Positions 2,088 to 60,763 of a stretch of DNA of 64,000 nucleotides are shown piece by piece. The notes beneath the pieces were generated by a model. That model made no database searches, was not told the DNA's origin, and saw nothing but the letters and a program-made list of their open reading frames with translations. Position 1 is the first letter of the stretch. The number at the start of each line of letters is the position of its first letter. Location of the stretch: the NCBI GenBank assembly GCA_963789065.1, contig CAWBKA010000025.1, positions 89,574 to 153,573 on the forward strand. Direction: 5' to 3'. This stretch comes from an uncultured Verrucomicrobiae bacterium (GTDB lineage: Bacteria > Verrucomicrobiota > Verrucomicrobiia > Chthoniobacterales > JAFAMB01). A program made the translations under genes and the position numbers.

Positions 2088-2125
2088 GCGTTCGGCGTTC
2101 GGCGTTTGGCGTTCGGCGTTCGGCG
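2088..2125. repeat. heptamer tandem array (GCGTTCG)x5 plus a degenerate unit
   Basis: Five consecutive 7-nt units start 3 nt after the TAG stop of the Rieske gene. The cgatacgtttccc motif follows at 2143-2155. Confidence 0.9.
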
Positions 2126-2735
2126 GGCCGCAGGCGCTTCGACGATACGTTTCCCTGGAAGTCCGAAAGCGGGATGGCGAATCCGAAAACGGAACGATTT
2201 GATGCGTTCGGCCAGGGCGAAAAGGCAACTCCCTCGAGAAAAGGCGCTCCAGGGTCCCATGGCACGGCCGGTGCTAAAGCCTGATAACGAGAGAAATCGA
2301 TTTCCTCAAAGTCAGAACCGGAGTCGCCGGGAAACAATCAATAGAGGAATCGAACTAATCCATGAAACCAGCTTGAGTCGAAGGAGTCGCAAAAAAGTAA
2401 GTTTATGCTTCGCTCGCATATCGGCGAGCCCACAAGCAGGCTTAACAGAGACCACGCACAGCATGAGATCGGTATGGGTATCCTGTGGCTTGTTCTTGGA
2501 ACCGCGTGTGCGGGGCTTGCCTGGAACCTTATCTCAATCTTGCTGAAATCAGCGTAGCCGCGAGGGAAACGTATCGGCGTATCGGCGTGTCCGTTAAGCG
2601 GCCCGTTGGCGGTTCTTGTCCTCCGAGCGGCTTCCAAGGAATACAGCACCGTGGAGGCTGAGTCGAAAATAACCGTCGCCAACGGGCCCCCCCAACACTC
2701 CCGAGACGCCGACACGCGACGCGTTCCCCTCCCGG

Positions 2736-3637
2736 GTCAAACAGTTCGCCCTGTGGCTGCGGGGCCCGCTTCGCTTCTTCTTCGACTTCTGCCAGCAAAC
2801 TCTTGAACTCGTACTTTTTCAGTCCGGCAAGGTAGGCCGGATAATCGGGACGAATCTTGAGGTCCAGTAACCGCACGGGGAGATCATGATCAATTTCGAG
2901 CCGAACCATCCGGCGGTTCTGGTAGATCTTTTCCCGGTTTGCAGCCAATTTTTCTCTCAACTTCAAGTTAGGGATACGGTCGAGGTTTTTAAGCAAACGG
3001 TCGATGGTTCCGAACTCGGCAATCAAGTTTGCGGCGGTCTTTTGTCCGACTCCCTCGATCCCGGTATATTGTCCACGCTATCGCCAGTAAGGGCCAGGAC
3101 TTCGCCGATACACTGCGGCGGAACACCCCATTTGCAGTAACTTCCGAAATTCCAAACAGAGCGTGGGAATCTTTTGGGTTTTTGAGATCGGTCTTATTTG
3201 TGGAATAAATTTTGACTGAATCGTTCACCAGTTGGAAAAGGTCTTTGTCGTTTGTCGCCAGAATCGTCTGAATCTGTTCGGTGCCGCGGCAATCGTATAG
3301 CGGCCATCAAGTCGTCCGCCTCTGTATTCGGTTTAGCAATCGAGGCAAATCCCATAGGAGTACAAAATTCGCGAATAAAATCCAATTGCGGGATCATTTT
3401 TCGGGCATCGCCTCGCGTTGCTGCTTGTATGCGGGCTGCAATTCCACGCGTTTCGCAGGAAGCCCTTCATCCCAAAAGACCGCCGCCAGGTCGGGCTGAA
3501 GATCTTTGAGCATTTTTCGAACGGTGCTGACAAAGCCAAAGATCGCGTTGGTCGGTTCGCCTCGCGAATTTGTCAGTGACTGGATCGCATGATAAGAGCG
3601 ATAGACGTAGTAATGGCCGTCGATCAGGAGGAGTCGT
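2736..3637 (-). pseudogene. 5'-3' exonuclease (Pol I N-terminal/FEN-like domain only), multiply frameshifted
   Basis: Pieces spread over three frames read LLLIDGHYYVYRSYHA.., FGFVSTVRKMLKDLQPDLAAVFWDEG.., MIPQLDFIREF..EADDLMAAI, ILATNDKDLFQLV, KWGVPPQCIGEVLALTGDSVDNIPG and IEGVGQKTAANLIAEFGTIDRLL. There are at least 4 internal frame changes, plus a stop directly after the only upstream ATG. No 3'-5' exonuclease or polymerase domain follows. Confidence 0.75.
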
Positions 3638-4748
3638 CACATAGCACCAGTAAGCAGGGTCTGGACGGCTGTCCAGAGATCAAGGGGATGAAAGAATCGG
3701 AAGAACCGATCACTCTGGACTTAAGGAGTACCTCGCCGCGACACGGCTCAAACAGTTTCAAATTGGGATCGGCGTCCTCACTCAGGTCAGATCGATATCC
3801 CCATAGATAACGTTCAGTGCGCCGCGTAGGCAATCATCGCGGCATTATCGGTGCTGAAAGACGGGGCGGTGAGCTTCAATTCCAAACCGGCGACGGCGGC
3901 TGCATCTGCCATTTTTGAGCGGAGCCGCGAATTGGCACTCACTCCGCCGCTGACGGTGAGCAGATTCATTCCGGCGGAATTGGCCGCCCGAATCGCTTTT
4001 TTCACCAGCACATCAGTGACGGCTTCTTGAAATGAAGCACAAAGGTCTGCTGAAAATCACCGTCCAGTTTTGGCAACAGATAACGGACGGCGGTTTTCAA
4101 TCCACTGAAGCTGAAATTGAAGTCCCGACTGGTCAGCATGCTCCGCGGAAGGTCAAACCGCTTCGGATTTCCGTTTTTTGCGAGGCGATCAATTTCTGGT
4201 CCTCCGGGATAGGGTAAACCGAGAAGCTTAGCTACCTTGTCGAAGGCTTCGCCGGCCGCGTCGTCGAGTGTCCTGCCGAGTAGACGATAAGAGCCGATCT
4301 CGGTCAAATGAATCAGCATGGTGTGTCCACCGCTGACGACCAGGCCCACGGAGGGGACCGGTCCATCAGGTTCCCCGATAAATGGTGACAAAAGATGGCC
4401 TTCCAAGTGGTTTATTCCCAGAAACGGCCTTCCCAGGCCGATCGCGAGACCCTTGGCCGCGCAATAGCCGACCAGTAAAGAAGTCAGAAGTCCCGGACCG
4501 CGCGTTGCCGCGACGCAATCAATTTCAGACAGGCTGCAACCAGCTCGTTTGGCGGCTAACTCAATGAGTGGGCCGATTCTTGGCAAGTGATTACGCGAAG
4601 CCACCTCGGGAACCACCCCGCCATATTTTTTGTGCAGATCGATCTGGCTCGAAATTTCGGAGACCAGCAGGTCTCTCCCGTCTCGAAGAATCGCTACCGC
4701 AGTCTCGTCACACGATGTTTCGACGGCTAATACCAACAACCGACTCAC
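3624..4748 (-). pseudogene. tsaD: tRNA N6-adenosine threonylcarbamoyltransferase TsaD, two frameshifts (probable assembly indels); 3' end uncertain
   Basis: The N-terminus reads MSRLLVLAVETSCDETAVAIL, followed by GINHLEGHL and VSGGHT. The protein continues as ADLCASFQEAVTDVLVKKAI..VSGGVSANSRL..STDNAAMIAYAA in a second frame and RSDLSEDADPNLKL in a third. The first junction is restored by lengthening the 4-nt run at 4053-4056 to 5. Confidence 0.85.
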
Positions 4749-8162: not shown

Positions 8163-9491
8163 TCAGCTGTGCACAGCTTCTTCGGGCCCGATTTCGACGT
8201 TAGCATTCGAGGTTAGGAAATCAAGGACCTTACCCATCAGGATCTCCTCCCGCACTTGCCCCATCGCTCGTTTTTCTTCAAGTTCCGACATCATTTTGTC
8301 ATAGCTCATTCGGTATTGACCTGCCAGCGCCTGTACTCGCTCCTTGACGTCCTGGCCGCTCACCTCGATCCCTTCTTTATCGGCGATTCTGGCCAGGATG
8401 AAGTTGGCCTTCAGCCGCTCTTTCGCGTTGCGGGACGCCATGCTAATGATGTTCTTTTCATTCTCCCTCAAAATCTCTTCGCTGATGCCGCGCATCTGAT
8501 TCTGCTGCACGATTTCGGACATGATGCGCCGCGTCTCGTCTTTAACGTAGCTTTGCGGCAATTCGCATTCGACGCGAGAAACGAGGAAGTCGATGATCTG
8601 ATTCTGGGTCATGGTCCGTTGCCGGCGCAGCTTTTCGGCAGTCAGTTGTTCTTTCAAGAGCTTCTTGAGCCCTTCGATAGTCAAATCCGGACCGACCTGG
8701 GCCGCGAACTCGTCGGTAAGTTCCGGGAGTTGCATACTCTTGATTCCCTTCAGAGTGACAGCAAAACGTAAGATTTTGGTTGCCAGCTCCGCCGTCGGAA
8801 AATCGTCCGGAATTGCAAGTTCGAACTCACGTGCTTCCCCGGTTTCCATCCCGACCAACCGCTCGCTAAAACCTTTGAGGATGGCGTCGTCATTGAGTTT
8901 GATCCAAAAGTCCTGGCCTCCGGCAAGCATCTTGGGTGCTTTCGGCTCAACCTCCAGCAAAGCCTGGCCGTCCAAAGTCGCGGCATAATCGATTACTGCA
9001 AAATCGCCCATTTCAAGTGCTCGTCCTTCGACATCGGTAAACGTGGCATGCCGTTCTCGAAGATTCTGCATTCCGGCATCAACCTCTTGGTCGGTAATTT
9101 CAACCAGCGGAACTTTCACGGCGATGCCCCTGTACTCCGGAAGCTCGAACTCGGGCAAAGTGATCAACGTGGCAGTGAACCGCATGCTCTTTTCAGGAGT
9201 GAACTCAACGTCATCCACCTCGGAGACCGACAGCACCTTCAAGCCTTTTTCACGGATTGCCTCGCGCGTCGTCTCGGCCACGAGTTTTTTCGTCAGTTCC
9301 GCCTGAATCTCTTTGCGGAATTTTGATTCAATCACGTTTTGCGGTGCTTTGCCCGGACGAAAACCTGGGATTCGCGCGACCTGCCGGAATCCTTTCACGA
9401 CTTCATTCCACTCTTTCGTAACACGGTCCGGCGGCAACTCGATACGCAAAGAAGCAATACAATTTGGCAGATTTTCAACTTCAACGTTCAT
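8163..9491 (-). CDS. tig: trigger factor
   Basis: Trigger-factor N-terminal domain with FRQVARIPGFRPGKAP. I place the start at the internal MNVEVENL (9491), because the upstream extension of the ORF runs through a heptamer repeat array. Confidence 0.9.
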   Translation of the reverse strand: MNVEVENLPNCIASLRIELPPDRVTKEWNEVVKGFRQVARIPGFRPGKAPQNVIESKFRKEIQAELTKKLVAETTREAIREKGLKVLSVSEVDDVEFTPEKSMRFTATLITLPEFELPEYRGIAVKVPLVEITDQEVDAGMQNLRERHATFTDVEGRALEMGDFAVIDYAATLDGQALLEVEPKAPKMLAGGQDFWIKLNDDAILKGFSERLVGMETGEAREFELAIPDDFPTAELATKILRFAVTLKGIKSMQLPELTDEFAAQVGPDLTIEGLKKLLKEQLTAEKLRRQRTMTQNQIIDFLVSRVECELPQSYVKDETRRIMSEIVQQNQMRGISEEILRENEKNIISMASRNAKERLKANFILARIADKEGIEVSGQDVKERVQALAGQYRMSYDKMMSELEEKRAMGQVREEILMGKVLDFLTSNANVEIGPEEAVHS

Positions 9492-9507
9492 GGAAAAGGC
9501 GCTTAGG

Positions 9508-9617
9508 GTTTTGCGTTTTGAGTTTTGCGTTTTGGGTTTTGCGTTCCGCGGGGCGCCGAACTCCCCGTGCAGCTTCCCACTCAAAACTCAAAACTCAAAA
9601 CCCAAAACTCAAAACCC
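9508..9617. repeat. inverted pair of heptamer arrays (GTTTTGN)x5 / (NCAAAAC)x5 with a 35-nt spacer
   Basis: The arms at 9508-9545 and 9581-9617 are reverse complements. The spacer holds a small cgggg..ccccg hairpin. The pair lies between the M16 peptidase stop (9623) and the tig start (9491). Confidence 0.9.
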
Positions 9618-9622
9618 TGCTC

Positions 9623-10894
9623 TCAGTACCCAATATCTCCGATCCAACGCTCCACTTTGGAGCCTTCGACGGGTCCGACAATACCAAGGCCCATCCGTTG
9701 AGGAGCGAAACAGAGATTCGCTACTTCCTGGATTTGCTCGGCGGTAACCTCTTTAAACCTGGCCTGCACTTCGTCCGGATCGACCACCTTGTCGTAGGCA
9801 AGCAAGGACTCGCCCATCCACATGATCTGATTGGTCGTGCTCTCGAGTCCAAGCTCATTCTGGCCAATCGTGTAGGCCTGGGCTTGCCGAAGCTCTTTCT
9901 TGCTCGGCGGCTTGCTCCGGAGCTTATCCAATTCTCGATGGATCGCGCGCAAAGCGCTCCGAAGCTTCTCGGGCTCGAGCCCGACACAGATGCTGACGAG
10001 ACCCGAATCCTCGAGGACCAAGGTTCCGCTGTGGACCGAGTAACAATAGGCGTAACGCTCTCTGAGCTGCTGGAACAGTCGGGAACTCATGTTTTCGCCG
10101 AGGATCACGCTCAACAGCTTCATCGCGTGTCGACGATTGTCTGTCCGGCTCATCGCGTGATAGCCCAATGCCAGATGAGTTTGTTCCGTTTCGTCCTTGG
10201 CAACGAGAACACGCTGATCACGCTTCACTTCGTTCCACCGTTGGAAAACAGGTGGCTGGCCGCGCGGTAACTTTTTTAACTTGCTGCGAAAGTAACGGAG
10301 AACTTCCTCATGGGAACAACGGCCGGAAACAGTGACAACAGTGCTGAGCCCGTTGTAATTCTCTCCAATAAACTTCAGTAGATGCTCTCGCTGAATCTTG
10401 CAAATCGACTCGACTGATCCGGTCAAAGGTCGGCCCAGGGCATGCCGGGGCCACATTGCTTCGGTGAGCAGTTCCTGTGAAAACTGGCCAGGCTGATCCT
10501 TATACATCAGGATCTCCTCCCGGATCACGTCCCGCTCACGCTCGATTTCCTGCTCCGCGAAAGTCGAGTTGACGTACATGTCAGAGAGCACGTTCGCCAA
10601 GGTGGGCAGATGCTCGGAGGCCGCTTTCGCGTAGATACAAGTATGATCTTCCGTCGTAAATGCGTTGATGAAACCTCCGAGACCTTCCACTTCCTCGGTA
10701 ATATCCCTGGACGATCGTTTTCCCGTGCCTTTGAAAAGTAGATGCTCCAGAAAGTGAGATATCCCACACAACTCCTCCGGTTCATGCCGGCCGCCGACCG
10801 CAACCCATATGCCGACACTGACACTCTTCATCTCTGGCATCTCGCGCGTGGCGATCCTGACTCCGTTCTCCAAAATCGATGTACGGTACTGCAT
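9623..10894 (-). CDS. M16 family (pitrilysin/insulinase-like) zinc peptidase
   Basis: HxxEH zinc motif in the context GISHFLEHLLFKGT, plus the downstream M16 C-terminal domain. The start is taken at MQYRTSILENG. Confidence 0.85.
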   Translation of the reverse strand: MQYRTSILENGVRIATREMPEMKSVSVGIWVAVGGRHEPEELCGISHFLEHLLFKGTGKRSSRDITEEVEGLGGFINAFTTEDHTCIYAKAASEHLPTLANVLSDMYVNSTFAEQEIERERDVIREEILMYKDQPGQFSQELLTEAMWPRHALGRPLTGSVESICKIQREHLLKFIGENYNGLSTVVTVSGRCSHEEVLRYFRSKLKKLPRGQPPVFQRWNEVKRDQRVLVAKDETEQTHLALGYHAMSRTDNRRHAMKLLSVILGENMSSRLFQQLRERYAYCYSVHSGTLVLEDSGLVSICVGLEPEKLRSALRAIHRELDKLRSKPPSKKELRQAQAYTIGQNELGLESTTNQIMWMGESLLAYDKVVDPDEVQARFKEVTAEQIQEVANLCFAPQRMGLGIVGPVEGSKVERWIGDIGY

Positions 10895-10951
10895 GCTACG
10901 CTCAGGCCATGTCGACAAAAATCGGGTCAGCACGTCCACCCGGCCCAATAA

Positions 10952-13389: not shown

Positions 13390-13529
13390 TAGAATAAACC
13401 CAGCCGTTTGATTTCGTCGATTGCGGTTTTCTCAGCCCGCACGCGGCATAATCTTTCCCGGCTGAGCACCAGACCTCGAAAGGCTTAAATTAAGTTGGTG
13501 AAGAAGTTTCCTTGTTGCTTTATGTTCAA

Positions 13530-15261: not shown

Positions 15262-15386
15262 TCGCGGCGCAAGGGCGACGCGAACGTCTCGCCGCTGAGG
15301 CCTGTCCTGGCTCTTAGCCATCGCTCGTAACGGGCTAATCGTTCCTAGCTAGCTAGAATCGTTCTCGTCCTCCAGCTCTGGGCGTT

Positions 15387-48819: not shown

Positions 48820-48826
48820 CTGCGCC

Positions 48827-48920
48827 GCCGAACGCCGAACGCCGAACGCCGAACGCCGAACGCCGAACGCCAAACGCGCGCCCGGCGAACGGTGAACGGT
48901 GAACGGTGAACGCCGAACGC
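48827..48920. repeat. heptamer tandem array, 13 units (GCCGAAC x5, degenerate, CGGTGAA x3, CGCCGAA x2)
   Basis: A continuous 7-nt register holds over 94 nt. The unit is the reverse complement of the GTTCGGC family at 2088 and 56099. The IS481 right end lies 7 nt upstream. Confidence 0.9.
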
Positions 48921-49025
48921 CGAACGATTCTGGTTGCGGCTACGCCGAGCCGTGATAAATGCCAGTTTGGCCGCTCAAACCAACTGGTCAAAATTGACGA
49001 TGTTAATAATTCACACTAGGGTCGT

Positions 49026-50057: not shown

Positions 50058-50083
50058 CTCTTTCTACGCATGTTTTTTCTTTC

Positions 50084-50779: not shown

Positions 50780-50822
50780 CCTGCGTCGCTCACAAATCCT
50801 TAGAGATTGTGCGCGACGCAGG

Positions 50823-51701
50823 CTAAAGACGCTCCGCCAGGCCATGCTCCGGGTCTTTGGCAATCCGCGAGTCCGGGCGTTCGGTGAGAATTGGTCCGGC
50901 TTTTTCACTCTCGATTGTCGCCATCTTCTGGACAACCTCGTGCCGCCGTTTGCTCGAAAAAAACGGATGAAGGATACCATAAAATAGATAGCTGATGAAA
51001 AGGACGGCTGGCATCCAGGTGTAGTTGGCCACCGTGGCAATCACGACCAGCACAATCACCAGGAGCTTCAAGGTGGGATGCCGGGTGCGCAAATCCAAGG
51101 CCCTAATGCTTGGGTAACTAAAGTGGCTAAGCATCATGAATGAGAGAAACAGCGTCAAAGGCGGCAGCAGCCATTTCCAACCGACAACTTGGTGCCCGCC
51201 AGGTGTGAGTGACAACGAAAACCAGGTCAGCGAAGCGATGATACCAGCGGCCCCTGGCACGGGTAAGCCATCAAAAGTCTTTCCCTTTTCAGTCCGCACC
51301 ATCGCGGCGGCAGTGCAGTTGAAGCGGGCAAGCCGTAAGGCGCAGCAGAGAAGGTAAACCGCGGCCAAAACCAAGCCGGCATACGAGAAATCCTTCAGCA
51401 GAATGCGACAGGCTAGCAGCGCCGGCGCGACTCCGAAAGAAACCAGGTCTGCCAGCGAATCGAACTCGCGCCCAAAGGCGCTCTCCTGGCCGCCCATCCG
51501 AGCGAGGTGGCCATCGAGGAAATCGAAGACGAATGCCGCGGTAATAAAGCCGATGGCCCAGGCAAAGAAAGATCTCTCTGAAAGGCTACCCTGCAAACGA
51601 GTGCCATGGAGGATACTCAATGTGGCCGCAAAGCCGCAGAGTAGATTGCCGCTGGTCATCAGGGTGGGCAAAAAATAAATTCTTGGTGATTTGTTTCCCA
51701 T
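50823..51701 (-). CDS. pssA: CDP-diacylglycerol--serine O-phosphatidyltransferase
   Basis: CDP-alcohol phosphatidyltransferase motif DFLDGHLARMGGQESAFGREFDSLADLVSFGVAPA. Polytopic membrane protein adjacent to psd. Confidence 0.88.
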   Translation of the reverse strand: MGNKSPRIYFLPTLMTSGNLLCGFAATLSILHGTRLQGSLSERSFFAWAIGFITAAFVFDFLDGHLARMGGQESAFGREFDSLADLVSFGVAPALLACRILLKDFSYAGLVLAAVYLLCCALRLARFNCTAAAMVRTEKGKTFDGLPVPGAAGIIASLTWFSLSLTPGGHQVVGWKWLLPPLTLFLSFMMLSHFSYPSIRALDLRTRHPTLKLLVIVLVVIATVANYTWMPAVLFISYLFYGILHPFFSSKRRHEVVQKMATIESEKAGPILTERPDSRIAKDPEHGLAERL

Positions 51702-51737
51702 GTCGAAGGTTAAAGCAGTCCGAAAGGCGGCAAAGTC

Positions 51738-52412
51738 CTAGAGGAACGATTGAGAGAGCCCTTGAGAATGCATCTTGTCTTTCGAAGAGAGTTTCGCAAT
51801 TACGCTTTCCCCGCCTTTCACGCGCTCGCCGATCTTTACCCTGATCTCGCTATCCATCGGCATATAAATCTCCGTTCGTGAACCAAATCGGATCATCCCA
51901 AAGCGTTCTCCTTTTTTTAGCTTATCGCCGACTTCCGACCAGCCAACGATGCACCGCGCCACCGCCCCAGCAACTTGCCGCACCACCAGGGTGGCGCGTG
52001 CGCTCTCGAACGCCCAGGTCTGATACGCATTTCGACGGCTCGCATCGGGATGCCGTGCATCGAGAAAGCTGCCACGATGGCTCCTTACGTAAGTGATTTT
52101 GCCGTCGATTGGAGCGCGATTGGTATGCACGTCGAACACCGAAAGAAAGATCGCTACCCGCCTCGCAATAGCGTTGAGGACTTCTGGTTCGAACGTTTCA
52201 TCGATGCCGACAATTTTTCCGTCAGCTGCCGCGACAATGGCGTCCCCATCGGCCGGCGTTGTGCGATTCGGGTCGCGGAAAAAATAAACCGTGCCAAGGA
52301 TCAGCGGCACCCAAAACAAGTTCAGCCAATGGCTGACTCTGCTGCTGATTGCAGAAAAGATCAACAGCACCAGCAGAATCCATCGTGCCTCCAGCAAAGT
52401 TTGAAATCGCAC
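51738..52412 (-). CDS. psd: phosphatidylserine decarboxylase proenzyme (short form)
   Basis: FFRDPNR, VHTNRAPIDG and the GERFGMIRFGSRTE region, which contains a GS(R)T self-cleavage-type site. 224 aa. Confidence 0.85.
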   Translation of the reverse strand: MRFQTLLEARWILLVLLIFSAISSRVSHWLNLFWVPLILGTVYFFRDPNRTTPADGDAIVAAADGKIVGIDETFEPEVLNAIARRVAIFLSVFDVHTNRAPIDGKITYVRSHRGSFLDARHPDASRRNAYQTWAFESARATLVVRQVAGAVARCIVGWSEVGDKLKKGERFGMIRFGSRTEIYMPMDSEIRVKIGERVKGGESVIAKLSSKDKMHSQGLSQSFL

Positions 52413-52543
52413 AAATGCATAGCAATAAGAAATCGCTACGAAGCCGTCAAGAGGCGTATGAGCACGCGTGACTTTCCACCGCGGTGTGCTGATTCACTCC
52501 CAGCCCGCCGTCCGCGCCCGATCGAGAGTGGTCCTGATCCCTC

Positions 52544-52570
52544 TCTCACCTCTCACCTCTCACCTCTCAC
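52544..52570. repeat. heptamer tandem array (TCTCACC)x4
   Basis: Same unit as the 19-copy array at 56141-56273. It overlaps the last codons and the TGA stop of the LysR gene, which reads GGTGAGA in gene sense. Confidence 0.85.
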
Positions 52571-53452
52571 AAACTGTTCCTTAGTGTACTCGATGAACCG
52601 CTGGACCAGAGGCTCGATCCGCTCTTTCCGCCAGGCAATGCCATACCGAATCTCCTGACCGGCGGGGCGTATCGGGATGAATTTCACACCCGGAGCCGGC
52701 TGGCGGGTGATGTGCTCGCCAAAAATCGAGACGCCGAAGCCGGCTGCAACGTATTGCACCGCAGTCCTCGCGCGATCCACTTCCTGAACCACCTTTGGCG
52801 TAAAGCCAGCACGTTGACAGAGTCGCGCCAACCAGGAGCGGTAACTGGGCGCATTTTCGCGCGAGGTCAAAATGAATCCTTCCTCTTTCAGTTGTTGAAG
52901 GCGAATAAAGGGGCGAGTGGCCAGTGGGTGATCGCTGGGCACTCCGGCCATCGGTTGTTCTTCGGCAATACATTCAATCTGCAAACCGGGCGGCGCTTTC
53001 CCGTCGATGGCACCGATGACTCCTATATCCAGCCGGTGCGTCGAGAGAGCTTCCAATTGTGCAGAGGGTACCATCTCCGTCAGCGTCACCTCAACGTCCG
53101 GATACTTCCGGCGGAAGCGCTTCAGAACGTGCGGCATCCATTCGTGGCTCTGAGCCCCGATGAATCCTATGGCCAGATGACCGGTTTCCGCCCGACCAAT
53201 TCTGCGGGTCTGTCTGGTCAGCTCTTCAAGATCAGTAATGATCTTCTTTGCTCCCAACAAAAAAATCTGCCCGGCGCCGGTCAGCTCTACGCGCCGACTA
53301 TTCCTTTCCAGCAGGACGACGCCGACCGCATTCTCCAAAAGACGGATTTGAGCGCTCACCGCCGACTGCGCAACATGCAACAGAGCGGCGGCACGAGTGA
53401 AGCTGAGCTCTTCCGCAACCGCAACAAAGTAACGGAGATGACGAAGTTCCAT
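52553..53452 (-). CDS. LysR family transcriptional regulator
   Basis: N-terminal HTH MELRHLRYFVAVAEELSFTRAA plus a LysR substrate-binding domain. Divergent from the MFS transporter gene. Confidence 0.92.
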   Translation of the reverse strand: MELRHLRYFVAVAEELSFTRAAALLHVAQSAVSAQIRLLENAVGVVLLERNSRRVELTGAGQIFLLGAKKIITDLEELTRQTRRIGRAETGHLAIGFIGAQSHEWMPHVLKRFRRKYPDVEVTLTEMVPSAQLEALSTHRLDIGVIGAIDGKAPPGLQIECIAEEQPMAGVPSDHPLATRPFIRLQQLKEEGFILTSRENAPSYRSWLARLCQRAGFTPKVVQEVDRARTAVQYVAAGFGVSIFGEHITRQPAPGVKFIPIRPAGQEIRYGIAWRKERIEPLVQRFIEYTKEQFVRGER

Positions 53453-53550
53453 GCCGGTAGCAAGAGACGTATCAATCAGCTAGACAGATGGCAGCTAGCA
53501 AAACAAGCTATTTCTCTTATTGCCAAGCACCTGCTAGAAGTGGCCCAGAC

Positions 53551-55116
53551 ATGAAAACATTAACGGTGCCAGCGGAAACCTCTTCAGCTTCGGGGTTGCC
53601 AACGCTTTGGCCGAAACGATTTGCACCGGCATTCGAGAGGTCTTCAAGGACGCGACGGGTAAATGTCCGCCTCCAGGAAAAGGAACCGGCCAACAAATGG
53701 ATCTCGCTGGCGGTTATCCTGGTCGGCCCGTTTCTAGGCGTGATCGATTTTTTCATCGCCAACATCGGAATTCCCTCCATCCGGACCTCTTTAGGCGCCT
53801 CCTTCAGCGAGATCGAACTCGTGATCGCCGGCTATGGATTATCTTACGCTGTCTGCTTGATCACCGGCGGAAGACTCGGGGACATCTTCGGCCGGAAAAT
53901 CACGTTTATCCTTGGGATGGCTGGTTTTACTTTGACCTCGGCTCTTTGCGGTTTGGCACCCACGGCGGGGTGGCTGATTTTCTGGAGGGTGGTCCAGGGA
54001 TGCGCCGCCGCGGTCATGTTTCCGCAAGCGCTTTCTTACATCCAGGTCAATTTTTCGGGACCATCGAAACGTGTCGCTTTCAGTCTCTATGGCGCAATGA
54101 TCGGTTTTGGATCGATCGTTGGACAGTTGCTCGGCGGCTTCATTATTCAGGCTAACTTTTTCGGCCTGGGCTGGAGACCGATCTTCCTGATCAATCTACC
54201 GATCGGGATCATCACGATCGTCAGCGCTTCCATGGTTCTCCGTGAATCGCGCGCGAACACCGCGCCGAAGTTGGACTTGGGCGGCGTCGCCATCCTCACT
54301 GTTGGTCTTGCTCTGTTCGCCTACCCGTTTATGGAAGGTCAACAGCAGGGATGGCCCTTATGGGCCTGGGCATCGCTCCTCGCCTCAGTTCCTGTCCTCT
54401 GGGCGTTCTATCTTTTCGAGCGCATGAAATCAGCGAGAAATTGCTCTCCCCTCATCGAGCCTCGGCTTTTTCGTGATCGCGGCTTCGTGGTCGGCCTGAT
54501 GGTGACCTGCATCTACTTTGGAGGCCACACCTCCATGATCCTGGTTTTGAGCCTTTATCTTCAATACAGCCTTGGTCTGAATCCGATGTACGCCGGGTTC
54601 GCCCTGGTGCCATTCTCTTTCGCATTCCTGCTCGGCTCGGCTGTTTCCGGCAAGATCAACGGCCGCCTCGGGCGCGGCTCACTCCATCTCGGTGTCGTTA
54701 TTCTGGCGATTGGCATCGTTGCCCTGGCGTTGGAGGCGGGCAAAGTTCCGAGTCACTTGACGCTGAGCTTCGTACTAACTTGCTTCCTCTACGGGATCGG
54801 TCGCGGAATCGTTACTTCACCTCTCTACAATACGGTGCTGAGCGGCATTCCGCACGAGGATGCCGGCGCGGCGTCCGGAGTAACTTCTACGATGCCTCAA
54901 CTGGCCAACTCCGTCGGTATCGCACTCATCGGTGCAGTGGTGTTCAGCGCAATCCCGAAACACGGCGCCACACCTGCCGACTACGCCCACGGTTTCGTCA
55001 TTTCATCGTTGATTAACCTCTTGATGCTTTTCGTAGCGGCTGTGCTGATATTTTTTATTCCCAAAAGCCGTGGTCGCGATCTACCAGCTGGCGAACCGGT
55101 CGCTGCCGAAGGGTAG
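53551..55116 (+). CDS. MFS transporter (DHA2/EmrB-like, ~14 TM)
   Basis: Many TM segments with the MFS motif GGRLGDIFGRK. An alternative upstream ATG lies at 53488. Confidence 0.85.
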   Translation: MKTLTVPAETSSASGLPTLWPKRFAPAFERSSRTRRVNVRLQEKEPANKWISLAVILVGPFLGVIDFFIANIGIPSIRTSLGASFSEIELVIAGYGLSYAVCLITGGRLGDIFGRKITFILGMAGFTLTSALCGLAPTAGWLIFWRVVQGCAAAVMFPQALSYIQVNFSGPSKRVAFSLYGAMIGFGSIVGQLLGGFIIQANFFGLGWRPIFLINLPIGIITIVSASMVLRESRANTAPKLDLGGVAILTVGLALFAYPFMEGQQQGWPLWAWASLLASVPVLWAFYLFERMKSARNCSPLIEPRLFRDRGFVVGLMVTCIYFGGHTSMILVLSLYLQYSLGLNPMYAGFALVPFSFAFLLGSAVSGKINGRLGRGSLHLGVVILAIGIVALALEAGKVPSHLTLSFVLTCFLYGIGRGIVTSPLYNTVLSGIPHEDAGAASGVTSTMPQLANSVGIALIGAVVFSAIPKHGATPADYAHGFVISSLINLLMLFVAAVLIFFIPKSRGRDLPAGEPVAAEG

Positions 55117-55194
55117 GGATGCGAGGGTCCGGCGTGGCATGTCTCGAAGCTTCCGTTCTCGAACGGGATGGTAGGGATGCGAGTCCGGCGTGGC
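55112..55194. repeat. direct repeat of a ~26-nt motif (ggtagggatgcgag(g)gtccggcgtggc)
   Basis: Copies lie at 55112-55138 and 55170-55194. The first copy contains the TAG stop of the MFS gene (55114-55116). Confidence 0.75.
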
Positions 55195-55293
55195 GCGTCC
55201 AGAAAACGTGGTCAGCCCCTTCGGATTTTGCAAGCACGCCGAAAATCCCGTTGCGCGCTTTGGTTCGCGACATTTTCGCGCTAGATATTTGGA

Positions 55294-56097
55294 ATGATTC
55301 ATCAGACCGCCGTTGTTGATCCGAAGGCTCAGATCGATTCCAACGTTGTCATCGGTCCGTATGCTCTCATTGAAGGTCCGGTTCAAATCGCTTCCGGCAC
55401 GGAAATTCAGGGTCACGCAGTCATAACCGGCTCGGTTCAGATCGGAGAGAACAATCGGATCGGATACGGGGCGGTGATCGGCGCGTTTCCTCAGGATCTT
55501 AGTTTTGATCCGAACTCCAGGTCCGGCGTAAAGATCGGCGAGAACAATGTCATCCGGGAGTATTGCACCGTCCATCGGGGCACCAAAGAAGGGTCAGATA
55601 CTCTGATCGGATCGAACAACCTTCTCATGGTGGGTGCACATCTTGGGCACAATACGCGAATAGGGAACAACGTAATCCTGGCCAATAATGTTTTGCTGGC
55701 TGGATATGCGGAAATTCATGATCGTGTCTTTATCGGCGGCGGCAGCGTCGTCCATCAGTTCACGAGGATGGGCACCATCTCGCTTCTGCAGGGTATTTCC
55801 GGCGTTGGCAAAGATGTCCCGCCATTTTCAATCGCCATCGGCAAAGACGGTATTTCCACCGTCAATGTCATTGGACTGCGGCGGGCAGGATACAGTGCGG
55901 CATTGCGTAAGGAAGTGAAGGAAGCGTTCGAGCTCTTGTACCGAAGTGGATTGAATTCAAGCCAGAGTCTCGAGGAAGCCAAAAAGCGTTCCTGGTCGAA
56001 CGAGGTTTCCTTGTTTTGGGACTTTGTCGCGACCTCGAAACGCGGGATCTGCCCCGTCGTTCGATGGAAAGAAACTCGAGGCATGGAAGAAACGTAA
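55294..56097 (+). CDS. lpxA: acyl-ACP--UDP-N-acetylglucosamine O-acyltransferase
   Basis: Starts [14 protein letters not shown], followed by hexapeptide-repeat left-handed beta-helix and the LpxA C-terminal helical domain. 267 aa. Confidence 0.93.
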
Positions 56098-56098
56098 C

Positions 56099-56126
56099 GG
56101 CGTTCGGCGTTCGGCGTTCGGCGGGC
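56099..56126. repeat. heptamer tandem array (GGCGTTC)x3 plus a degenerate unit
   Basis: It starts 1 nt after the lpxA TAA stop. Same unit family as 2088-2125. Confidence 0.9.
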
Positions 56127-56140
56127 GGCTGAGTGGTCCC

Positions 56141-56273
56141 TCTCACCTCTCACCTCTCACCTCTCACCTCTCACCTCTCACCTCTCACCTCTCACCTCTC
56201 ACCTCTCACCTCTCACCTCTCACCTCTCACCTCTCACCTCTCACCTCTCACCTCTCACCTCTCACCTCTCACC
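56141..56273. repeat. perfect heptamer tandem array (TCTCACC)x19
   Basis: 133 nt with no mismatch. It generates the spurious SHLSPLT-repeat ORFs in the ORF track. Confidence 0.97.
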
Positions 56274-56293
56274 ACCTCCGCGATCTCAAACAA

Positions 56294-56360
56294 GACGCCG
56301 CTTCGCGAAGACGCCGATACGCCGATACGTTTCTCCCGCACGCCGATACGTTTCTCTCCC
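56294..56360. repeat. CGCCGATA octamer / cgatacgtttctc motif repeats
   Basis: The region reads acgccgat acgccgat acgtttctccc gc acgccgat acgtttctctccc. The same motif occurs at 2143-2155 and, in inverted orientation, at 2564-2586 and near position 60-75. Confidence 0.8.
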
Positions 56361-56415
56361 GTCCTGCTCATTTTTGTTTGATCATCTATGGTTGGTTGTT
56401 TAATACGACACCTTA

Positions 56416-56934
56416 ATGACGAGAGCCTTACGTGCCCTGACCATCGGGCTGACACTCCTTGCTATAGGTTGTTCGGAAAATGGAGGGAGAGGTAAGTCGA
56501 GTGAACGCGGCAGCAAGGTCCCAGTTGGCGAGCGAAAAATTGTCAAAACTACGGCCTATACCGATTCAGAATCCGGGCATCACGCCTACGGCGCTAAAAA
56601 TGCGATCGGATCTTGTCTCCAATCGGGCAGCCTGAACAGCGCGGCGGCAGACTGGTCTCGTTTCCCGATCGGCACCAAATTCCGGGTCGTCGATACCAAC
56701 CAGACGTATGTGATCGACGACTACGGTCCGGCTCTGGTTGGCACCGACACCATTGATTTGTACGTGCCATCGATGCGGCTTATGAATCAATGGGGCGCGA
56801 AACGGGTAACGATTGAGGTATTAGAAATGGGGTCGTTTGAAAGAAGTTTAGCAGTCCTGGAGCCGCGCCAGAGAAACCGATGTGTCAGGCAGATGGTGCA
56901 GAATATCAGAAAGCAAGATGAAACGAGGTTTTAG
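56416..56934 (+). CDS. 3D (DPBB, MltA/RlpA-like) domain lipoprotein
   Basis: Lipobox LLAIGCS, then TAYTDSESG and a 3D-domain-like core ending TIDLYVPS. Confidence 0.72.
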   Translation: MTRALRALTIGLTLLAIGCSENGGRGKSSERGSKVPVGERKIVKTTAYTDSESGHHAYGAKNAIGSCLQSGSLNSAAADWSRFPIGTKFRVVDTNQTYVIDDYGPALVGTDTIDLYVPSMRLMNQWGAKRVTIEVLEMGSFERSLAVLEPRQRNRCVRQMVQNIRKQDETRF

Positions 56935-56937
56935 CGC

Positions 56938-57910
56938 TTGAAAGTTTTTGTGACAGGCGGAGCGGGTTACGTCGGAAGCATCTGCGTCGAAGAACTGCTT
57001 CGGCGCGGGGACGAAGTTTTCGTTTTCGACAATTTGTCCGAAGGTCACCGTCTTTCGATCGATCACCGGGCGACATTTATCCAAGGCGATTTACTTGATC
57101 CTAAATCGATTTCGCTCGCGATCAACACATCCGGCCCGGAAGCCGTAATGCATTTCGCGGCTAATGCACTCGTGGCCGAATCGATGGTGAATCCGTACAA
57201 ATATTTCCAAAACAACGTGTACGGCGGCCTGAATCTTCTCCATGCGATGATTGAAAACGGCGTCGAACCGCATCGTGTTTTCTTCTACCTGCGCGACTTT
57301 CGGGACCCCCGACCGCAGCCTGATCGACGAAAACACGCCTCAGAACCCGATCAACCCGTACGGGGAGTCCAAACTGATGTTTGAGAAGATTCTCCGCTGG
57401 TTTGACCAGATTCACGGTCTTACCTTTATTGCCTTCCGGTACTTCAATGTTGCAGGCGCCTCGGAGAAATTCGGCGAACACCATCGGATCGAAACACACT
57501 TGATTCCGCGTGTTCTGCAAGTCGCGTTGGATCGAATGCCGAACGCCGAGATTTACGGGACGGATTTTCCGACTCCGGACGGGACTTGTATCCGGGATTA
57601 CATCCATGTACTTGATCTTGCGTCAGCACACATCCTTGCCCTTTCAGCTCAGAAGAGCGACTTTTTTAATCTCGGAACCGGTGGCGGAACTTCCGTGAGA
57701 GAGGTCATCGATGCCTGCCGCAAGGTCACCGGGCATCCGATTCCGGCGATCGAAAAACCTCGCCGCCAAGGCGATCCGCCCCGCTTAGTGGCTTCTTCGG
57801 AAAAAGCAAAAGAGCAACTCGGGTGGAAGCCGCAGTTCGAGAATATCGAAGCGATCGTCGGGAGCGCTTGGCGGTGGCATATCGCCCATCCGGACGGTTA
57901 TCCAGATTAG
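56938..57910 (+). pseudogene. galE: UDP-glucose 4-epimerase GalE, one frameshift near 57265 (probable assembly indel)
   Basis: VTGGAGYVGS Rossmann start in frame 1. The protein continues in frame 2 as RIVFSSTCATFG..NPYGESKLMFE (YxxxK)..RYFNVAGA..DYIHVLDL. TTG start. Confidence 0.9.
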
Positions 57911-57953
57911 TGTCCTGTCCCCGAAATAGGAGGTCTTTTGCGGAGGTCGGTTA

Positions 57954-58026
57954 GCTGTCCCGCACCAGTTACAGCCGCCGCGGCAAAGCGGACGACCCAT
58001 CATAGTAAAACTGGTGCGCGGACAGC
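57954..58026. repeat. long-loop hairpin (17-18 bp stem) downstream of galE
   Basis: gctgtcccgcaccagtt (57954-57970) pairs with aactggtgcgcggacagc (58009-58026) with one bulge. The half-motif gctgtcccgcacca recurs at 62750-62763. Confidence 0.5.
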
Positions 58027-58249
58027 CAACCCGGCCCGGCCCAAAGGGTTGCGATGAAAATGGCCCGGCGGCTGCGTTTGCTGATCGGTCAACTTCCTCG
58101 GTTTTTTCCGTTCCTAGTCTGTAATCCCTTCCGTCAAAGTGCGGCGCCGGATGCGTGGGAGTCTATGCCGCCCTCCGGGGGTTTTTCCTTGCTTTTCAGA
58201 GTCCCCGATGTTGCCCTTTTGTTTTATTTTATTCCGTTAACAATCCCTC

Positions 58250-60672
58250 ATGAGGCTCCGGATTCTAGGTCTTTTCTTTCTGATTTCGCTGCCGATCAAA
58301 TCTGCTTGCCCAAGTCGCATCCTTACCCGCCGCCTCCGAGCCGCACGCCGGCCGACGCCTACGCCTGGGCCTCGCCCTAGACGCCCGGCCGCAAAGAATT
58401 CGGCGTTTAGCCCCGTTGCTGCCCTTTCAGAGCGCGACAGAGTACCGGACCGATCCCGGTTGAAATCACGTCCGGAGAAACTCGATTTGAGGGTGGAGTC
58501 GCCATTGCGGAAAAGGATGTCGTCGTCCGATACGGCGATGCCACGATTTACTCCGACTATGCAGAATACAACCCCAACACCCACGAAATCGTGTTGCGAG
58601 GCAATGTCCGATTCTATCGGGACAGATACGCCTTCACCGCCGACCGAGCCATTTACAATCTGCAAACCAAGCAATTGAAGATGACTGATTTTGGGGGTCC
58701 GAAACCGCCCTTTCAGGTCGTCGGCGATACCCTCCTTTCCCTCAAGGAAAATCAATACACGATTTTGAACGGTTATCATCACGACGAGCGACACGTCGAA
58801 ACCCGATTACCAACTCCGTGCTCGGACGTATTCGCATTTATGAGAACGATCGAATCATTCTCTCGAACGTAACGCTGTTTATCGGACAAACGCCGGTTTT
58901 CTGGTTTCCTTATATTTACCAGTCCTTAAATGATCAATTCAGCTATAACCTGGCTCCAGGGTACAACTCGACGTGGGGAGCGTATTTGTTCACGTCGCTG
59001 ACTTTTCCGATCGCGACGAACGTGAGCGGAACGGTTGCACATCGACTTGCGAAGCTTCCCGCGGGCCGGCTCTTGGTTTCGAGATCAACTACACTTCCGC
59101 CAAGATAAGCAGACCTCCGGGCGCCTGCTGGTTTACGGGTTGATCGATCAGTCGCCAAATATCAATGAGACCGCATTGGGCCGTGCCCCTATCGGTTCCG
59201 GACCGATATCGCATCGCGTACCAATCCAGGACCTATATCACCAGCGATCTATCGGCGACCGTTAATTTCAATAAATTGAGCGACCAATATTTTCTTCAGG
59301 ATTTTTACCCCAGTCTCTTCGCCGTACGATCCTCAGCCGGATACCTATACGAATTGGTAAAACGCGGCGAGGCCTACACCCTGAGTTTACTGACCCGTCC
59401 TCCAAGTGAACGAATTTTCTGGAAACGGCCGAACGCTTGCCCGAATTAAGTTGGCAGGTCGCGCGAACGCCGCTGTTTAATGGACCGATCTTCTACGAGG
59501 CAACCACATCCGCGGCCTACCTAAACCGCTTATTCGCCGCCAAAACGGGCAATCTATCCATCGACCTGCAAAGCGGGGCGCTCAATCCCGACTACGACCT
59601 TTTTCGCTTTGATTCGTTTCATCAACTTGTTTTTCCCCACACTTACTTCGGTTGGCTATCACTTGTTCCGAGCCTCGGCGTCCGCGGTACCTATTACAGA
59701 CCACCGGAAGTTTCACGGAATCTGATATCAGTAATCCAATCCCCGAGGGTATCCTGGTCGAACACGGGGGACGCGCAAGGTTTGCCTTTAACTCCAACAT
59801 TGAGGCCTCCTTCAAGCTCTCAAAGGCATTCGAGAACGTGCAACAGAGATGGCTCGGACTCGACGGTCTGCGTCACATCATCCAACCTTACGCCGACTTC
59901 TCATGGGTCTCTTCCCCAACGGTTAAACCCTCCGATATCCTCCCCATTGACCAGTATATCCCGAGTACCAAATTGCAACCGATCGATTTCCCCGAGTACC
60001 GTGCGATCGATTCGCTCGATCAGTGGACAATATTGCGCCTCGGGATGCGGAACCGACTCCAGACTCGGCGTGATTCCACGACTCTCAATTGGCTCGATAT
60101 CGACAGCTATTTTGACGTCGATTTCGATAATCCTCTTGCCCAGGTCGCTCCGCCAGCCAGTACCAGCGTTTCGCGTTCCAACATTGTCACCCCGCCGCAC
60201 GAACTTTTCTCCAATGTCTTCAACAGGATAAGATTTCAACCCGTTCCTTGGCTTTACCTCTCTGTTGACTCGCAAGTGCCTCTTCTGGACAAAGGGTTCT
60301 GGTCGGTGACGACCTTTGTAGACTGGATGGTAAGTCCCAATATTGAATTCCGAGTGGGACATCAGTATTTGCAGAGCAATCCGTACTACCAGGATACGAG
60401 CGAGCTCTCCTTTTACACTTACCTGCGGCTAAACGACAATTGGGGCTTTAGTTTTTATGAGGATTACCAATTCAAGACGGGAATCGTAAACCTGCAACAA
60501 TATTCAATTCATCGCGACCTGAGCAGTTGGGTTGGTTCGCTTGGATTTAATATCACCAACAACGGAGCCGGTAAAACGCAGATCGCGCGTGGTGTTGACG
60601 TTCACCCTGAAGGATCTGCCCAGATTCGGTTTGCCAATCAATTTGGATGTCGGCAACGCCCTCGGCGAATAG
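58250..60672 (+). pseudogene. lptD: LPS-assembly outer-membrane protein LptD (OstA family), at least 7 frame changes
   Basis: Signal peptide MRLRILGLFFLISLPIKSA. OstA-like N-domain (ITSGETRFEGGVAIAEKDVVVRYGDATIYSDYAEYNPNTHEIVLRGNVRF). Collinear barrel fragments follow in alternating frames (IRIYENDRIILSNVTLFIGQTPVFWFPY.., LPELSWQVARTPLFNGPIFYE.., WLGLDGLRHIIQPYADFSW.., VVLTFTLKDLPRFGLPI). The 5' end is uncertain. Confidence 0.8.
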
Positions 60673-60673
60673 A

Positions 60674-60763
60674 GTTTTGAGGTTTGCGTTTTGCGTTTTG
60701 GGTTTTGAGCGATTCTTTTGCGCCGTGTCGCAACCCGAAACCCAAAACGCAAAACCCAAAACC
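60674..60763. repeat. inverted pair of heptamer arrays (GTTTTGN)x5 / (CNAAACN)x4 with a 27-nt spacer
   Basis: Arms at 60674-60708 and 60736-60763. It starts 1 nt after the reconstructed lptD TAG stop. Same family and architecture as 9508-9617. Confidence 0.88.

Follow-up and report, generated by a model that had tools for sequence, protein, structure and literature searches.

Tandem arrays of heptanucleotide units abut the stop codons of protein-coding genes, with the G-rich strand in the sense of the gene, in a 64,000-nt stretch of contig CAWBKA010000025.1 (hereafter the window), which derives from the compact genome of a soil member of the Verrucomicrobia, of the Chthoniobacterales lineage (G+C content of the window, 54.5%). 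Both the placement of the arrays and the orientation of their G-rich strand at stops exceed chance in this lineage. The loci belong to the heptanucleotide class of simple-sequence repeats, known as short tandemly repeated repetitive (STRR) sequences or long simple-sequence repeats (LSSRs). At two of the loci the repeats form inverted pairs, an architecture absent from the original prediction, which had been made from the sequence of the window.

Heptanucleotide arrays and neighbouring stop codons

All nine period-7 loci were recovered by Tandem Repeats Finder (TRF), with 3.7–19.3 copies and 85–100% matches. The original prediction had placed all nine correctly, but two of them (9508–9617 and 60674–60763) each consist of two opposite arms around a loop and are not single arrays. 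The features and the genes next to them are as follows.

2088–2125, plus strand: direct GCGTTCG array, 5.4 units, starting 3 nt past the Rieske TAG (2082–2084)
9579–9617 (TRF 9579–9615), minus strand: stop-proximal, G/U-rich arm of five GTTTTGA/G units (M16 sense), 5–7 nt past the M16 TGA (9623–9625)
9546–9578: loop of the hairpin between the M16 and trigger-factor (tig) genes
9508–9545, minus strand: distal, C/A-rich arm of five NCAAAAC units (gene sense), ending 16 nt before the trigger-factor ATG (9491)
14109–14155 (TRF 14108–14154), plus strand: direct, degenerate GTTTTGA/GTTYGGG array of period 7/14, 0 nt past the Redoxin/AhpC TAG (14106–14108)
15451–15621: additional inverted pair of purine-rich hexamers/trimers (GAACGA/GACGAC ... 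TCGTCC/TCGTTC), purine-rich arm first
36999–37047, plus strand: direct GGAGTCA array (TRF 36999–37029), with degenerate units on to 37047
48827–48920 (TRF 48826–48926, 14.3 copies), minus strand: GCGTTCG family (the plus strand reads GCCGAAC), ~13 units in two blocks
52544–52570 (TRF 52543–52570, 4.0 copies), minus strand: direct array of four GGTGAGA units (LysR sense), enclosing the LysR TGA (52553–52555)
56099–56126 (TRF 56098–56123), plus strand: direct GGCGTTC array, 3.7 units, 0–1 nt past the LpxA TAA (56095–56097)
56141–56273 (TRF 56139–56273, 19.3 copies), minus strand: perfect TCTCACC array of 19 units, 142 nt upstream of a 3D-domain gene
60674–60707, plus strand: stop-proximal, G/U-rich arm of five GTTTTGN units, 1 nt past the orthologous-frame LptD TAG (60670–60672)
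60732–60763, plus strand: distal, C/A-rich arm of 4.6 NCAAAAC units, 60 nt before the UDP-glucose dehydrogenase (Ugd) ATG (60824)
1770–2084: Rieske gene
9623–10948, minus strand: M16 peptidase gene
13512–14108: Redoxin/AhpC gene
52553–53452, minus strand: LysR gene
55294–56097: LpxA gene

Pfam searches of the flanking and selected open reading frames (ORFs) confirmed the proposed Rieske, Redoxin/AhpC (thioredoxin-like), M16, LysR and LpxA identities, and identified the gene downstream of the M16 array as trigger factor. The seven stop-codon distances given in the original prediction were borne out by these coordinates, including two stops that fall inside arrays. The longest local LptD ORF stops at TGA 60678–60680, within the first repeat unit; the distance of 1 nt is that of the true C-terminal frame, which ends at TAG 60670–60672 as judged by tblastx against the intact 798-aa orthologue of a relative (L008).

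Coding sequence extends into the arrays at two loci. The GGTGAGA array supplies the final 5 codons of LysR, and the GGAGTCA array encodes the final 6–7 codons of a 572-aa hydrophobic protein, previously termed a membrane protein, which has at least 6 hydrophobic segments and no Pfam match. Its TAG (37018–37020) arises from a variant unit, GGAGTTA-G, inside the array, whose units decay distally, as had been remarked. The 56099–56126 array degenerates to GGCGGGC GGCTGAG at its end. No period-7 array of at least 3 copies was found by TRF within a gene body of the window. The 12 arrays of the window are intergenic or overlap only the final 5–7 codons of a gene, and none lies in a divergent spacer; since the window contains only ~3–4 such spacers, rarity between divergent genes is weakly tested.

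The G-rich strand runs in gene sense at all seven of the stop-associated loci, as claimed earlier, although at the two inverted pairs this is true of the stop-proximal arm only, and GCGTTCG is itself only weakly G-rich (3 G : 2 C). The TCTCACC array is of the GGTGAGA family, with the C-rich strand on the coding strand.

Placement statistics cover the window and the relatives fetched for comparison (28 arrays; ~10 independent stop sites, several loci being orthologous). In 14 of the 28, corresponding to roughly 10 independent sites, the G-rich 5' end lies within −25 to +10 nt of a same-sense stop; when placement and orientation were permuted 5000 times, the count averaged 2.4 and never exceeded 9. 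None of the 28 abuts a stop with its C-rich strand in sense. Most of the non-abutting arrays are distal C-rich arms, situated 4–16 nt (up to 142 nt) before start codons, and the exceptions to the stop rule are the 48827 array and the 15451–15621 pair. When each element of the window was placed uniformly inside its own intergenic region and the p values were combined by Fisher's method, intergenic placement gave p = 5.6e-6; a conservative two-sided statistic on |gap| raised this to 1.1e-3. The signal came mostly from long spacers, with a gap of 3 in 320 nt for Rieske and of 1 in 318 nt for LpxA. Stop abutment combined with strand bias, as put forward in the original prediction, is thus real in this lineage.

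Of the two exceptions, the 48827–48920 array is 99–105 nt upstream of the polyprenyl synthetase start, and 6 nt separate it from the right end of an IS481-family element. Without this insertion sequence (IS) and an insert resembling a miniature inverted-repeat transposable element (MITE; 47141–47292), it would sit ~20 nt past the phosphomannose-isomerase stop (47137). The arms of the 15451–15621 pair (~53 nt, 85% complementary) are ~190 nt from either flanking gene. From the 14109–14155 array to the radical-SAM start the distance is ~36 nt.

The nearest M16 homologues were proteins of Verrucomicrobiota/Chthoniobacterales metagenome-assembled genomes, with a top identity of 96%. The syntenic relatives comprise L001–L004 (~85% nucleotide identity to the window), L005, L056–L058, L185 and L186 (~90% M16 amino-acid identity; nucleotide identity, measured for L005 alone, ~75–77%) and L183 and L184 (~72–73% M16 amino-acid identity). 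Relatives of the LpxA region (L006–L009) share 90–74% amino-acid identity; the genome-contig search with LpxA gave 4 relatives, and its remaining 46 loci, from other phyla, were taken as controls. Period-7 arrays of at least 3 copies numbered 16 (plus one of period 14) in 195 kb of lineage DNA (window and relatives) and two in 777 kb of the controls, so that their density in the lineage is ~30 times that of the control loci.

Inverted arms and turnover at fixed sites

The two inverted pairs share the form (GTTTTGN)x5, a loop of ~30 nt, and (NCAAAAC)x5. This architecture explains the two C-rich arrays that had appeared not to conform to the strand rule. The RNA of the M16-tig hairpin (9489–9628, minus strand) has a predicted fold of −58.8 kcal/mol (z = −5.1), and none of the shuffled sequences folded as well; the corresponding values for the LptD-Ugd hairpin are −47.7 kcal/mol and z = −3.8. 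For inverted pairs the z values range from −2.8 to −7.3; direct arrays show no such folding, with values of +0.66 (2088), +1.84 (14109), −1.4 (36999) and −0.9 (52544) against shuffles. Structure after stops was not a general property of this genome, the mean minimum free energy of 66-nt windows there being −16.4 kcal/mol versus −16.3 kcal/mol in coding controls (p = 0.70). Scans of the window for Rfam families and tRNAs gave no match.

In the predicted M16-tig fold, the GA of the M16 stop codon is paired at the base of the stem with positions −6/−7 of the tig start, and in that of L056 the YqeY UAG is paired with the IspD AUG region. The distal arm ends 4–16 nt from the next ATG in several cases and therefore leaves no room for a promoter. 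Further inverted pairs occur in L001, L006, L007, L056, L058 and L183. The G arm comes first in all of the hairpins seen in the window and relatives, including a period-9 pair of L183, whose G-rich arm begins 8 nt past a stop.

The trigger-factor ORF (8163–9584) is overextended by ~30 codons into the hairpin, beginning at TTG 9584 rather than at the conserved ATG 9491, and the public gene call of L001 (9022–10449) repeats this overextension. Gene callers should be alert to ORFs such as that of trigger factor being extended into arrays.

Intrinsic (Rho-independent) terminators were considered for the hairpins and rejected: no terminator-like site was found at the five loci scanned, the other four were assessed by reading the sequence, and the stems, which are long and rich in A/U, are not directly followed by a U-run. 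A non-repeat stem at 50773–50829 (23 bp, 11-nt loop, −34 to −39 kcal/mol) does resemble a bidirectional terminator; it lies between the convergent genes 50084–50779 (plus strand) and 50823–51671 (minus strand), and its arms hold both stop codons.

Comparison of orthologous sites, which the original prediction had proposed, revealed rapid turnover at fixed positions, where relatives carry units of another sequence, another number of units, or no array at all. At M16-tig, relatives L001–L004 carry a GTTTTGA hairpin 0 nt past the TGA, with 4 units versus 5 in the window and a different loop; between L003 and L001 the distal arm and loop differ although the M16 proteins are identical. In more distant relatives (L056, L057, L058, L059 and L005), the M16 gene ends in GGATTTTGA or GGATTTTAA, one version having a TAA stop, and this end (GGATTTTGA/TAA or GGATTTTAA) pairs with AACTTAAAACTCC ~85 nt downstream. 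The GGATTTTGA-AACTTAAAACTCC stem is a single-copy version of the amplified GTTTTGA/TCAAAAC arms of the window. Single-copy stems in some lineages thus correspond to amplified arms in others, and the series from no element through single-copy stem to amplified arms offers a concrete model of how arrays originate.

The LpxA site occurs in four states in four genomes: GGCGTTC x3.7 followed by TCTCACC x19 in the window; (GTGAGAG)x5, a loop and (CTCTCAC)x3–4, starting 4 nt past the stop, in L006; an AGGCAAA-type hairpin in L007; and no array in L008. Given these states, the perfect 19-unit TCTCACC array is best interpreted as what survives of an earlier inverted pair, namely its distal arm in expanded form. 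At the LysR site, GTGAGAG in the window is replaced by GGCTGGT x11 in L006, and the two arrays start from an identical position within the gene, whose final codons they provide. The Rieske array is missing from the orthologous site of L001, where the downstream flank is still homologous; at the Redoxin site, the array of L001 is shorter and follows a tandemly duplicated segment that contains the stop.

The spacer between YqeY and IspD measures 12 nt in L001; in the window it holds a small palindrome, 1 nt past the stop, and in L056, L058 and L005 repeat-armed hairpins (period 6 or 7) that reach from 1–4 nt past the stop to 4–6 nt before the ATG. Compared with L008, the LptD-Ugd hairpin of the window is a clean ~90-nt insertion between the position after the stop and the conserved TTCTGCTGGACAAATG, and L006 has a different structured insert at that spot. 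The arrays are likely to be of use as strain-typing markers.

The unit families are specific to lineages: GTTTTGN was found in the window and L001, GGTGAGA in the window, L006 and L007, and CAGTGTC/CAGTTGY in the clade of L005, L056 and L058. Array periods of 6, 8 and 9 occur in relatives, with 7 predominating in the window.

Metagenomes were scanned with the pattern (GTTTTGN)x3+GTTTTG, and the figures given here refer to the matches listed. The matching contigs span a G+C content of 0.21–0.73; some are eukaryotic and telomere-like and many prokaryotic. An inverted partner, where a GTTTTGN array has one, follows downstream of the G-rich arm in 11 cases, as against 2 with the partner upstream. 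This spread indicates that neither the phenomenon nor its polarity is special to the present genome. In about 25 of 80 GTTTTGN loci a long sense ORF ends at the array, versus 8 with an antisense ORF; these counts are supporting only, being confounded by the presence of stops in all frames of GTTTTGA and in none of TCAAAAC, and by the inclusion of eukaryotic telomere-like contigs. (GTTTTGA)n arrays occur in contigs L063–L142 at 37–69% G+C and often adjoin other heptamers, such as GACTGAC x11 (L117) and repeats of CTACTCC (L076). The complementary TCAAAAC array, stop-free in every frame, lies in some contigs, for example L095, inside a long ORF of the opposite strand.

Origin and possible roles of the arrays

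We favour, with moderate confidence, an explanation in which these loci are polar elements of the STRR/LSSR type that have grown by slippage at stop codons, and whose hairpins act as RNA structures similar to repetitive extragenic palindromes (REPs). The basic unit is a polar element made up of a G/U- or purine-rich arm at the stop, a non-conserved loop and a complementary C/A-rich arm facing the next start. Where both arms are present, the transcript would form a stem of 30–40 bp that fills the intercistronic spacer; a lone arm is G-rich if it sits at a stop and C-rich if it precedes a start. Arrays would arise and be resized through replication slippage, seeded by a stop-overlapping stem or by a stop-containing heptamer, and would persist right after stops because period-7 expansion there shifts no reading frame and spares the downstream initiation region.

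The hairpins would most likely be REP-like intercistronic or 3'-end structures, on the assumption that they are transcribed. They could protect the upstream message; they could also block access to the downstream initiation region for as long as the base of the stem has not been opened by the terminating ribosome; and the paired arms may couple or insulate translation. The G-arm-first polarity would also keep G-poor, C-rich RNA, a substrate for Rho loading, from exposure behind the released ribosome, and would be retained for that reason.

Several observations weigh against this explanation. The sample is small, with the ~10 stop sites and shared orthology described above. Removal of the IS and MITE-like insert would leave the 48827 array with its weakly C-rich strand in gene sense, and the hexamer pair at 15451–15621 is distant from the nearest stop (~190 nt). 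Direct arrays have no predicted structure, which leaves five of the nine loci outside the reach of a hairpin function. On the coding strand, the TCTCACC x19 array is an unpaired tract, long and C-rich, which misfits avoidance of Rho unless it serves as a terminator. A scan of 48000–62500 for promoter and terminator consensus sequences gave counts equal to those of shuffles and no sites at the five array loci of that region. No arrays were found in L008 (20.8 kb), L009 (11.5 kb) or L184 (21.3 kb), and close relatives are without the element at individual sites; it follows that the elements can be dispensed with, and they may be neutral. Finally, unit families recur across loci within one genome and differ between lineages, for which locus-by-locus slippage alone is insufficient. 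Neither the favoured explanation nor a neutral origin explains this recurrence.

Since the elements can be missing between close relatives, a purely neutral origin has to be taken seriously as a rival, although we consider it rather unlikely. The arrays would then be by-products of slippage, stop codons being the only unconstrained spots in short spacers, and the strand bias would reflect mutational asymmetry or the purging of C-rich RNA. Presence or absence among close relatives, absence from some lineages, loops that are not conserved and the lack of structure in direct arrays all agree with such an origin, as does the fact that TGA/TAG-containing units end any incoming ORF within 21 nt. Similarly, Rehm et al. 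2015 established no function for the heptamers of Xanthomonas or Nostoc (PMC4692102). However, abutment is also seen in the long spacers downstream of Rieske and LpxA; the 14:0 orientation bias and the G-arm-first polarity require at least purifying selection; arm complementarity is retained while the units change across lineages; and unit families recur inside one genome.

It is doubtful that hairpins tying the stop codon to the next start region constitute an intercistronic device tunable by slippage, of which the direct arrays would be half-elements in transit. Under such a scheme, gain or loss of 7 nt in either arm would reset the length and register of the stem and hence translational coupling or mRNA stability, and lineage-specific units would be kept by a cognate RNA-binding factor or by gene conversion.

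Multimeric sites for a lineage-specific DNA- or RNA-binding protein (CsrA-like, cold-shock-protein-like, S1-like or nucleoid-associated) would explain why each genome favours certain units, dispersed and lineage-specific as the families are. Analogous proposals have been made for TAACTGA repeats (PMC4679880) and for Nostoc heptamers (bioRxiv 10.1101/2022.06.06.494920), and GGA motifs are present in the GGAGTCA and GGAGTT units. Such sites are nevertheless improbable: at least 4 unrelated unit families coexist within 64 kb, the unit is swapped at a fixed site between relatives, and the reading comes without a candidate protein.

G-quadruplex (G4) regulatory repeats in the mRNA 3' end or the non-template strand, as proposed for GGGAATC/GGGGAYT, would share the position and strand rule observed here; GG recurs every 7 nt in GGAGTCA, GGTGAGA and GGCGTTC, and the usual array length is 4–5 units. 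This explanation is very unlikely, however, for the G-tracts of the arrays measure 1–2 nt, GTTTTGA units hold only single or double G, the only three G3–4 tracts are those of 14109–14155, and no array has four tracts of at least G3. Minimum-free-energy folds by ViennaRNA with G4 energies switched on predicted no quadruplex in any array. The positional rule is thus independent of quadruplex capacity, holding for four families unable to form canonical quadruplexes, which weakens explanations centred on quadruplexes. A more general cause is indicated, for example what happens immediately behind a ribosome as it terminates, the avoidance of Rho, or a function of the hairpins.

We give equally little credence to mobility, in which a transposase would have spread MITE- or REP-like units and placed them behind stops, even though the LptD-Ugd hairpin is a clean insertion relative to L008 with another structured insert in L006, unit families are dispersed, and genuine MITE-like and IS elements are present in the window. 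The two GTTTTGN hairpins of the window share arms but have unrelated loops, no terminal inverted repeats apart from the arrays and no target-site duplications were seen, and strains whose flanking proteins are identical differ in copy number. Growth in place is favoured by the single-copy proto-stems that occur at the same sites. A MITE identity was rejected for the same lack of anything shared beyond the arms and of duplications; the MITE-like elements of the window (37177–37399 and 47141–47292) look different.

Assembly or sequencing artefacts, which the original prediction had named as a possible undoing, can be practically dismissed. Frameshifted genes in the window (LptD, epimerase, 5'-3' exonuclease, IS transposase) do suggest indel errors or pseudogenes, and the exact count of the perfect 19-unit array is not verifiable; the M16-tig array, however, is present in the four independent assemblies L001–L004, orthologous arrays occur in independent ENA, JGI and NCBI assemblies of different samples, and their placement relative to genes is consistent. 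Two other classes were rejected: CRISPR, as there are no spacers, and contingency repeats for phase variation, as the arrays lie past the stops of housekeeping genes (Rieske, peroxiredoxin, M16, LpxA and LysR) and encode at most the final 5–7 codons.

Relation to known repeats and other elements of the window

The original prediction had known of no description of a stop-codon rule combined with this strand bias. Rehm et al. 2015 (PMC4692102), however, reported that the G-rich heptamers GGGAATC of Xanthomonas and GGGGA(C/T)T of Nostoc PCC 7120 lie close to stops, on the coding strand, so that the placement and strand rule is a previously described property of similar repeats. Those heptamers are over-represented in non-coding DNA, mainly between aligned ORFs and seldom between divergent ones, and their G-rich strand is on the coding strand, 0–50 bp from or overlapping the stop codon; a mirror class lies on the non-coding strand, upstream of ORFs (PMC4692102). 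Xanthomonas has 70–75 convergent inverted pairs per genome, the intergenic repeat patterns of Xanthomonas genomes Xcc and Xac vary extensively in length and sequence, and most Xac repeats are transcribed (PMC4692102).

The arrays described here agree with these repeats in being tandem (typically ~4–5 units), non-coding and mostly located between co-directional genes, with the G-rich strand in sense at stops and a mirror class before starts, C-rich-in-sense arrays being found 4–142 nt upstream of start codons. Likewise, they include convergent inverted pairs able to form stem-loops, and occupy shared intergenic sites with variable length and sequence (M16-tig, LysR, LpxA, YqeY-IspD and Redoxin, across L001–L009, L056 and L058). 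They differ in belonging to the phylum Verrucomicrobiota, in the coexistence of several unrelated unit families rather than one, in having G-tracts of 2 nt and no predicted G4, in a tighter stop abutment (mode 0–5 nt), and in stems that link the stop codon to within 4–16 nt of the next start.

A poorly understood repeat class, that of gene-end heptamers with fixed strand polarity, is thereby extended to the Chthoniobacterales, Udaeobacter-like Verrucomicrobiota that are very abundant, uncultured soil bacteria. New are the phylum, the several unit families unable to form G-quadruplexes, and the stems by which a stop codon and the following start region are connected. A literature search found no paper linking Udaeobacter with tandem repeats.

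The likeness to cyanobacterial STRR heptamers drawn in the original prediction is apt. According to the summary in PMC4679880, Mrazek et al. 2007 found heptanucleotides to be the commonest long simple-sequence repeats in most of the prokaryote genomes examined and proposed polymerase slippage as their origin; STRR heptamers have been reported for Calothrix PCC 7601 (as cited in PMC4692102). Insofar as these summaries describe them, both sets share with the present arrays the dispersed tandem heptamers, the genome-specific unit families, the dominance of heptamers and the proposed slippage origin, and neither PMC4692102 nor PMC4679880, in summarising those studies, credits them with stop abutment or repeat-armed hairpins. 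The present host, unlike that of the STRR sequences, is not a cyanobacterium, and its units are GCGTTCG, GTTTTGN, GGAGTCA and GGTGAGA. The canonical STRR units differ in sequence from these.

MacGregor 2015 described TAACTGA direct repeats that abut start codons in Beggiatoaceae, cyanobacteria and Bacteroidetes (PMC4679880). These too are intergenic heptamers at a translation signal with stop triplets in the unit, and a post-transcriptional role has been proposed for them, but they lie a few nt upstream of starts, have one unit sequence and are almost always direct (PMC4679880). In the lineage of the window, by contrast, the proximal arm is at stop codons and inverted pairs are common. Regulatory effects have been reported for Nostoc heptamer repeats near starts (bioRxiv 10.1101/2022.06.06.494920).

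The hairpins of the window recall REPs and bacterial interspersed mosaic elements (BIMEs) in being extragenic stem-loops past stop codons. REP/BIME sequences are transcribed extragenic stem-loop elements that follow stop codons and lie between co-transcribed enterobacterial genes; they are thought to stabilise upstream mRNA, and an effect on translation termination has been reported when they are near the stop. REPs have a conserved consensus of ~35 nt, contain no tandem short units and are linked to REP-associated tyrosine transposases (RAYTs). The stems described here are instead built from tandem units, with loops unrelated between copies, and no RAYT-like protein was found among the flanking and selected window ORFs scanned with Pfam. 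Mycobacterial interspersed repetitive units (MIRUs) are tandem units of 40–100 bp, intercistronic in operons. They follow the orientation of the genes, overlap the flanking stop and start codons with their ends, show copy-number polymorphism, and may be small ORFs that are translated. The present arrays resemble them as intercistronic tandem repeats touching the flanking stop and start codons, and differ in their heptameric units and inverted-arm hairpins.

A further parallel with REP/BIME concerns insertion sequences. The terminal repeats of the IS481-family element next to the 48827 array (47303–48820) are doubled, TTCAGGACATAGGTAACAC ... GTGTTACCGATGTCCTGAC, and the transposase of the element is divided between two frames (47383–48051 and 48030–48533). 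In L183, a ~210-bp IS481 derivative with the same ends (15318–15530) lies in the loop of a heptamer-armed hairpin, the first arm of which holds the TGA of the upstream gene. By analogy, the IS481 family may target heptamer repeats in the way that IS1397 and ISKpn1 target REP/BIME.

Several genes of the window are broken. LptD (58054–60672) has about seven frame changes relative to the L008 orthologue, and an NAD-dependent epimerase (56938–57910) and a 5'-3' exonuclease (2739–3659) are split across frames; most other genes are intact. The frame-split genes represent either real pseudogenes or clustered indel errors of long-read assembly.

The MITE-like element at 37177–37399 has terminal inverted repeats with 52-nt arms (96% complementary). 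Its arm sequence (ATGGCTTTTGTCCCGGAGGGACA...) recurs at 47141–47292 and, in L009, just downstream of lpxA, which points to a dispersed element family separate from the heptamer arrays. Long intergenic inverted repeats are also present at 35185–35344 (33-nt arms, 91% complementarity) and 62314–62537 (19–20-nt arms, 95–100%).

Beyond the Rieske array, a small ORF (2405–2557; 50 aa, one hydrophobic segment) is conserved with a called 62-aa gene of L001, which, unlike the window, has an FAD/Trp-halogenase-like gene between the exonuclease and the counterpart of this ORF. A short array of 8-nt period lies 13 nt past the stop of the small ORF. Such arrays, with the shared motif CGTATCGG / ACGCCGAT, 'GACGCCGATACG', occur at 2570–2588, at 56311–56329 and in L006 (9932–10005). 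The motif is found at several places, in relatives and in a metagenome contig (L108), and would therefore represent another dispersed family of short repeats. Lastly, a gene-poor region of 716 nt (40314–41029) contains a 33-nt tandem repeat (40560–40628, 2.1 copies), an 18-nt repeat (40828–40867) and short 8- and 5-nt repeats.

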